Shown here in pieces: positions 825 to 1,147 of a stretch of 1,238 bases of DNA. The position numbers and the translations under genes are program-made. Under the pieces are notes generated by a model that was given only the letters and a program-made list of their open reading frames with translations, was not told the origin of the DNA and made no database searches. Position 1 is the stretch's first letter. Each line of letters opens with the position of its first letter. Origin of the DNA: Escherichia coli (GTDB taxonomy: Bacteria > Pseudomonadota > Gammaproteobacteria > Enterobacterales > Enterobacteriaceae); NCBI RefSeq assembly GCF_003334355.1, contig NZ_QOWP01000092.1. One strand, written 5' to 3'.

Positions 825-1147
825 TTTTTTGCACGCCCGTATTCAACGGCTTCTTTAAGGAGTTCATTTTCCATCGTTTTTTTGCCGAGCAGGCGCTGGA
901 GTTCTTTAATCTGCTTCATGGCAGCAGCAAGTTCAGAGGCAGGAACGACCTGCTCTCCTGCGGCCACAGCAGTAAGACTTCCCTCCTGGTATTGCTTGCG
1001 CCAGAGAAATAACTGGCTGGCTGCCACACCGTGTTGCCGGGCAACAAGGGAGACCGTCATTCCCGGTTCAAAGCTCTGCTGAACAATAGCGATCTTTTCC
1101 TGTGTAGTACGCCGTCTGCGTTTCTCCGGTCCTAAGACATCAATCAT
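1..1147 (-). CDS. InsCD transframe fusion transposase, produced by programmed -1 ribosomal frameshifting at 824-830 (partial, C-terminus outside window)
   Basis: InsD is in the -1 frame relative to InsC, and the two overlap over 782-824. The slippery heptamer A AAA AAG lies exactly at the start of the overlap. In IS3-family elements the active transposase is the OrfAB fusion. Confidence 0.7.
782..1147 (-). CDS. insC: IS2 OrfA / InsC, small DNA-binding transposition regulator (121 aa), N-terminal half of the InsCD fusion transposase
   Basis: The - strand ORF in the track (782-1192) contains [54 protein letters not shown]...LLPGDGE, recognised as IS2 InsC, with a helix-turn-helix-like segment followed by a heptad-rich coiled-coil-like region. 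The true start is taken as the ATG at 1147-1145, preceded by GGAGAG (revcomp of 1151-1156) about 5 nt upstream. The upstream GTG at 1192 used by the track lies inside the terminal repeat/palindrome and adds 15 hydrophobic residues. The TAA stop is at 782-784. Confidence 0.88.
824..830 (-). other. Programmed -1 ribosomal frameshift slippery heptamer A AAA AAG (A6G)
   Basis: The + strand reads CTTTTTT at 824-830, i.e. AAAAAAG on the coding strand. In the InsC frame it reads GCA AAA AAG TGG (A K K W); in the -1 frame it reads AAA AAA GTG GAT (K K V D), which continues as InsD. It sits 13 codons before the InsC stop. Confidence 0.75.

Follow-up and report, generated by a model that had tools for sequence, protein, structure and literature searches.

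The run of seven adenines (A7) in insC of this IS2 copy is very probably an incidental synonymous homopolymer and a mild indel hotspot, and not a recoding or phase-variation device. A raised indel rate is the sole demonstrable consequence of the run, and none of the testable features that define a programmed frameshift site, an expression slippage site or a contingency tract is found at A7. The finding as such is already known biology. The initial annotation of the window (the whole stretch of DNA that was analysed, 1,238 nucleotides) had reported TTTTTTT at positions 877-883 of the plus strand and had assigned it to the insC gene of IS2, on the upstream side of the canonical slip site. The run is present exactly at these positions and the assignment is correct.

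IS2, a member of the IS3 family, fills the 1238-base window on the minus strand. The reverse-complemented window was aligned to the annotated 1331-bp IS2A of Escherichia coli MG1655 over IS2 nt 1-1238 with 52 mismatches and 0 gaps (95.8% identity). IS2 nt 1 corresponds to window base 1238; the left end of the element is therefore in the window, and the right end, with the final 93 nt of IS2, lies beyond it. To count as an isoform of IS2 under the ISfinder convention, an element must be at least 95% identical in nucleotide sequence to the reference IS2 along its length, and the identity over IS2 nt 1-1238 is above this value. Both OrfA (an HTH and LZ-like repressor) and OrfB (DDE) are of the IS2 type. 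The insC product matched the NCBIfam profile NF006928 ("IS2 repressor TnpA") over its full length with 276.4 bits (cut-off 229), and the orfB frame matched NF006918 ("IS2 transposase TnpB") with 642.9 bits (cut-off 597) over profile positions 1-274 of 301. The orfB gene lies in the -1 frame and overlaps orfA, with A_AAA_AAG in the overlap. By every testable criterion the element in the window is IS2. The features of the window are listed in Table 1.

Table 1. Features of IS2 and of the A7 run, in window coordinates
Feature	Position	Strand	Basis
insD / orfB (DDE catalytic part of transposase), -1 frame, cut by window start	1-824	-	profile match, IS2A alignment
Strong predicted RNA hairpin, starting 6 nt past A6G	746-817	-	folding
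insC / orfA of IS2, 121 aa (InsA/TnpA repressor and N-terminal part of OrfAB transposase)	782-1147	-	ORF and translation
Canonical A_AAA_AAG (A6G) programmed -1 frameshift motif (IS2 nt 409-415), phase GC A_AAA_AAG	824-830	-	position, phase
TGA closing the -1 frame 4 codons past A7	864-866	-	simulated A8 / -1 reading
A7 run, Lys89, Lys90 and first base of Thr91 of insC (IS2 nt 356-362)	877-883	-	sequence, frame
Left end of IS2 (IRL and 5' untranslated leader)	1148-1238	-	gap-free alignment to IS2A

Of 5,426 complete E. coli genomes, 4,883 contained IS2-like sequence. The window as a whole has a 100% identical counterpart in E. coli PSS-12, and the insC of the window is 100% identical to that of a copy in Klebsiella grimontii 06D021. 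The window holds IS2 sequence alone and stops exactly at the outer base of the left end with no flanking host DNA. A collapsed-repeat contig of a short-read assembly would look like this.

The A7 run starts at codon position 1 of Lys89 in GGC AAA AAA ACG (G88 K89 K90 T91), 53 nt upstream of the A6G slip site and 46 nt upstream of the orfA/orfB overlap. No homopolymer in the window is longer, and the T6 of the slip site comes next. Because a run of ≥7 arises in 24% of mononucleotide shuffles of the window, A7 is not a statistical outlier among composition-matched sequences. AAA accounts for 6 of the 10 Lys codons in the insC of the window, and a Lys-Lys-Thr peptide with two AAA codons suffices for A7. 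A -1 shift at the run, or an eighth adenine (A8), gives the reading AAC GAT GGA AAA TGA, that is, NDGK followed by the stop, and a 94-aa product made of InsC 1-90 and NDGK. The initial annotation was right that a -1 shift reaches TGA, and its figures of about 6 codons and about 100 aa are corrected here to 4 codons and 94 aa. A +1 shift, or a run of six (A6), leads to a stop after 19 codons (109 aa) at a TAG just beyond the A6G site. The orfB gene is entered by neither of the shifted frames from A7.

Comparison with other copies of IS2 indicates where the run comes from. In K-12 IS2A the site is spelled GGC AAG AAA ACG, and the G at IS2 nt 358 interrupts the run. The synonymous substitution G358A (AAG to AAA) is one of the 52 substitutions relative to IS2A and creates the A7 of the window. 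Within insC, the window and K-12 IS2A have 19 differences, all of which are synonymous, and the 121-aa InsC proteins are identical (K-12 InsC1). The run had been suspected of being an incidental Lys-Lys codon pair, and the spelling of the same lysines as AAG AAA in K-12, with an identical InsC, bears this out. The 19 synonymous-only differences show strong purifying selection on InsC across both lineages.

The two alleles were surveyed in the 5,426 complete E. coli genomes using queries of 64-66 nt over IS2 nt 317-381, a segment in which both alleles are the same except at nt 358. Earlier tract queries of 126-128 nt had caught the allele of the window only, because the other alleles escaped them through flanking SNPs. 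Perfect matches to the A7 form of IS2 nt 317-381 were found in ~2,500 E. coli records and perfect matches to the AAGAAAA form in ~3,830 records. These totals are the counts of the "≥99%" band (2,676 for A7 and 4,005 for AAGAAAA) minus ~172 partial 100% matches; they are counts per record and not per copy, taken from BLAST identity bands, and as denominators they are approximate. By record, the two insC alleles coexist in E. coli at roughly 40:60. A degenerate-pattern scan of viral contigs gave 102 AAGAAAA, 20 AAAAAAA and 1 AAAAAGA.

The same codon pair also varies among more distant relatives. A scan of genome contigs gave 23 loci from hosts other than E. coli, and served to cover the diversity of lineages and not frequencies. 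The window-type clade (insC ≥97% identical) has A7 and the K-12-type clade (insC 94-96%) has AAG AAA. Both lysine spellings occur in an IS2-like clade of ~80% identity, and IS2-like elements of Providencia (~77%) and Erwinia (~72%) have AAA AAA and AAA AAG, respectively. In all the IS2-like lineages compared, the peptide spanning Lys-Lys is unchanged while the third codon position toggles between A and G; it is thus the two lysines that are constrained and not the adenine run. K89 belongs to a leucine-zipper-like motif (residues 70-103), and the substitution K89M abolishes transposition (PMC3219604). Two further variants of the region were seen. A sub-variant, GGA AAA AAA ACG, in one viral-contig locus (L010) and one other has a synonymous GGC to GGA change that makes an in-frame A8 and leaves the protein unchanged. 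The IS2 copy of IMGVR_UViG_651053022_000007 has a 99-nt tandem duplication inside insC (884-909 and 983-1008), in which A7 and A6G are both present twice.

It may be asked whether frameshifting (-1 or +1) or transcriptional slippage at the run serves to make a 94- or 109-aa InsC as a modulator of repression or oligomerisation. In both directions the Lys tRNA can re-pair perfectly on AAA_AAA_A, and both shifted frames are short. In E. coli genes the heptamer AAAAAAA is under-represented in each of the three frames, which is consistent with some cost of slippage (PMC4066793). A -1 motif needs an X_XXZ_ZZN heptamer or a Z_ZZN tetramer in the phase of the zero frame (PMC4066793). No in-phase X_XXZ_ZZN is present at A7, where the in-phase heptamer is C_AAA_AAA; as the phase is AAA_AAA_A, the tetramer A_AAA is the only in-phase motif. 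Tetramers without a stimulator shift at about background in E. coli (0.147% vs 0.112%), and A_AAA is the weakest of six tetramers that respond to a strong pseudoknot (PMC4066793).

The hairpin that follows A6G was used as an internal positive control for a real site. The frameshift of IS2 was reportedly defined by Hu et al. in 1996. The A6G window of the element has been described (PMC3219604). The 80 nt after A6G fold with a dG of -37.8 kcal/mol (z -3.25), and 1 of 200 shuffles folds as well; the predicted hairpin at 746-817 is probably the frameshift stimulator. Its 6-nt spacing fits the published rule for stimulators of the IS3 family. The 80 nt after A7 gave a dG of -18.1 kcal/mol (z -0.54), with a main helix that surrounds the A6G site itself, and the 40 nt after A7 gave a z of -1.02. 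Folding of 40 or 80 nt downstream thus found no stimulatory RNA structure 4-10 nt past A7. Direct reading of the 18 nt upstream of A7 found no Shine-Dalgarno-like GGAG, AGGA or GAGG, and scanning the window against Rfam at E ≤ 1 gave no match, so that no family was assigned at A7, at A6G or at the hairpin. The shifted frame at A7 gives access to neither an extended ORF nor a conserved product, and the motif is not conserved at the nucleotide level among relatives. The potential ribosomal slippage site that had been suggested is accordingly in the wrong phase for X_XXZ_ZZN and lacks a downstream structure.

Transcriptional slippage fares no better. The RNA polymerase of E. coli slips on ≥7 T and requires more than that for A (PMC6260861), and IS elements that exploit slippage have conserved runs of 8-9 A in the ORF overlap (PMC1088944). 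Against thresholds of ~9, and sometimes 8, A or T (PMC1088944; PMC6260861), A7 has 7 A, is polymorphic and lies outside the overlap. The suggestion of transcriptional slippage, taken as purposeful, is unsupported, since the run is not conserved and its variants are rare (~1% of records). The run varies although the InsC protein is conserved, and the 94-aa product would lose N94 and L97, each of which abolishes transposition when substituted (PMC3219604). Purposeful recoding at A7 is on these grounds extremely unlikely, and ribosomal and transcriptional slippage at the run presumably occurs at background level and has no function.

Variants in tract length provide the evidence for an indel hotspot. 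Records were counted from rows with full coverage and 100% identity. The A6 version was matched perfectly over its full length by 26 E. coli records and the A8 version by 3. Three further records matched the A8 length with one SNP in the flank, and one of these (MS10860) was fetched and confirmed as A8, which puts A8 in 3 to 6 records. Among the ~3,830 records with the interrupted allele there were 0 with AAGAAA and 0 with AAGAAAAA, and the excess of indels at A7 over the interrupted allele has a Fisher p = 3e-11. Because the same site shows none when it is interrupted, the uninterrupted A7 is an indel hotspot. The initial annotation was therefore correct in calling the tract indel-prone, as 6A and 8A variants occur in complete genomes and none at the interrupted allele. 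Tract length, checked in assemblies, is not invariant. About 1.0% of A7-bearing records have a deletion and 0.1-0.2% an insertion. The neighbouring A6 run of the slip site was found as A5G in at least 40 and as A7G in 10 of ~6,200 records, and the indel rates at the two runs are of the same order.

All of this A6 and A8 variation might be sequencing or assembly artefact, with a tract that is truly invariant. Several assemblies (EH01-18-02, L6-21, MIN6, EM20-18-50, MS10860/MS10711 and tcmA_3) turn up in more than one of the independent variant lists, and deletions outnumber insertions, as they do among the homopolymer errors of nanopore sequencing. Twelve variant copies were fetched and aligned to IS2A. 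Five of them (L004, L149, L151, L154 and L155) contain 2 to 12 indels. In the other seven the tract indel is the only indel, which tells against a wholly artefactual origin; these are L001, L002 and L156 (A8) and L003, L150, L152 and L153 (A6), and they include pTB422 (CP034789), pMADE-3 (CP086681), FDAARGOS_1285 (CP070152), P19_598 (CP067241) and JCH8249 (CP132020). Ten of the 12 copies are annotated as "frameshifted" pseudogenes, the exceptions being L151 and L155. Two independent plasmid assemblies, pTB422 from chicken (L003) and pMADE-3 from swine-manure effluent (L150), have the same A6 copy at one insertion site with identical flanks, so that this A6, at least, is a real mutation that has been inherited. 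An exclusively artefactual origin is thus unlikely. An independent indel at the A6G run accompanies A6 in 5 of its 26 records, where 0.2 would be expected (p = 3e-6), a signature of error-prone assembly that points to homopolymer assembly errors as the explanation of part of the A6/A8 set.

The same variants bear on whether A7 is a phase-variation switch, in which reversible 1-nt changes toggle IS2 copies and the A7 allele is kept for this purpose. Such a switch would fit the occurrence of both A6 and A8 and their absence from the interrupted allele, the inherited A6 copy common to pTB422 and pMADE-3, and the single-indel copies in otherwise intact elements, one of them in an FDAARGOS assembly. 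A contingency tract has common ON and OFF lengths; at A7, just ~1% of the ~2,500 A7-bearing records vary. The similar rates at the neighbouring A6 run indicate that the tract is not special, most IS2 copies and several sister lineages function without A7, and the A6 records with a second indel at the A6G run count against a switch as well. Contingency loci known so far use longer tracts than A7. The suggestion of a phase-variation hotspot is consequently unsupported, as the run is not conserved, and the variants are rare, are mostly annotated as pseudogenes among the copies fetched and come in part from multi-error assemblies. A phase-variation switch at A7 is very unlikely.

Length variants at the canonical slip site were also recorded. 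A7G, which fuses orfA and orfB, was found in E. coli EF7-18-58 (L158, NZ_CP068591.1) and in 9 other records; the copy fetched from EF7-18-58 is annotated by PGAP as an intact 409-aa transposase (WP_202763993.1). An engineered fused-frame IS2 transposase carries the same A7G change (PMC3219604). Some of the natural A7G records may be errors, as several are from assemblies with other homopolymer indels. One copy (L151, NZ_CP063519.1, plasmid pEH01-18-02_1) and, by coordinates, also NZ_CP123964.1 (L6-21 plasmid) combine A6 at the A7 run with A5G at the slip site. In L151 the two 1-nt deletions sum to the -1 frame and yield one uninterrupted ORF, with an annotation as an intact transposase (WP_251326762.1). 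The combination was rejected as a meaningful natural fusion: 17 zipper residues, including N94 and L97, are scrambled, and the assemblies have other homopolymer indels. The L151 copy is probably either dead or an artefact of assembly. An A5G slip site was further found at the IS2A locus of K-12 HMS174 (L157, NZ_LM993812.1), which otherwise has 0 mismatches to MG1655 IS2A, and in DH5a (H215). The HMS174 copy is still annotated as "programmed frameshift" by PGAP, and its A5G reflects either the true loss of one nucleotide in a laboratory strain or an error of sequencing. In a viral contig (L114), at 339 of the plus strand, IS2 orfA runs into the orfB frame after ...EYGRSKK, with an A-to-S change beside the slip site. 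This is apparently another natural fused-frame variant.

The reading of A7 as an incidental, mildly indel-prone homopolymer can be stated as a sequence of steps. The run would arise from the codons chosen for Lys89-Lys90 and the Thr (ACG) after them, in the part of InsC/OrfAB that resembles a leucine zipper and serves oligomerisation. The lysine pair is under constraint at the protein level, the choice between AAA and AAG for the first lysine, which depends on the allele, would be neutral, and the AAA allele of the window gives the uninterrupted A7. Replication slippage, together with sequencing and assembly error, would then produce 1-nt indels more often than in the AAGAAAA allele. Such indels would truncate InsC and, because the tract is upstream of the A6G frameshift site, would also remove OrfAB; the transposase would be abolished and the IS copy dead. 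Individual IS2 copies are indeed subject to an on/off effect at a low rate. The competing explanations overlap this account in part, in that some artefact is certain and low-level slippage with no function is likely.

A more far-reaching proposal is that neutrality does not hold for the AAA allele of Lys89. A7 would then be a self-limiting device, acting by indels that silence copies at a raised rate and occasionally revert, or by a slippage-made 94-aa InsC, with the HTH kept and half of the zipper lost, that modulates repression. This proposal is scarcely probable. If true, a self-limiting A7 would help to explain the coexistence of two synonymous IS2 lineages in E. coli.

Overall, the run carries little biological weight, as what looked like a plausible second slip site, in a transposase gene that has been studied well, turns out to be a neutral codon-choice variant. 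The two common IS2 alleles amount to a natural experiment, with 1-nt indels in ~1% of records at A7 and in 0 of ~3,830 at AAGAAAA. Of such variation in "complete" genomes, a sizeable part comes from assemblies that contain several homopolymer errors, and annotations of "frameshifted" or of unexpectedly "intact" fused transposases should therefore be checked against reads first.

Several known systems can be compared with A7. The K-12 IS2A (insC1/insD1; IS3 family, IS2 group) shares with the window the InsC protein, the A6G site, the -1 overlap of orfA and orfB and the left end, and differs by 52 substitutions including G358A; the window is also short of the last 93 nt. Programmed -1 sites of the IS3 family (A_AAA_AAG with a hairpin or pseudoknot) resemble A7 in having an A run and a slippery Lys tRNA inside orfA. 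In contrast to these sites, A7 is in the wrong phase, has no structure, lies outside the overlap, has its -1 frame shut after 4 codons and is not conserved. Baranov et al. (2005; PMC1088944) have described transcriptional-slippage sites in IS elements, which likewise consist of adenine homopolymers within the gene for a transposase; A7 differs from them in having 7 A, in being polymorphic with AAGAAAA, in lying outside the overlap and in offering no path into orfB. Ordinary homopolymer indel hotspots and assembly errors share with A7 the excess of deletions over insertions, the need for an uninterrupted run, the annotation of most variant copies as frameshifted pseudogenes and the clustering in particular assemblies. 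There is no material difference between these and A7, which belongs in this category.
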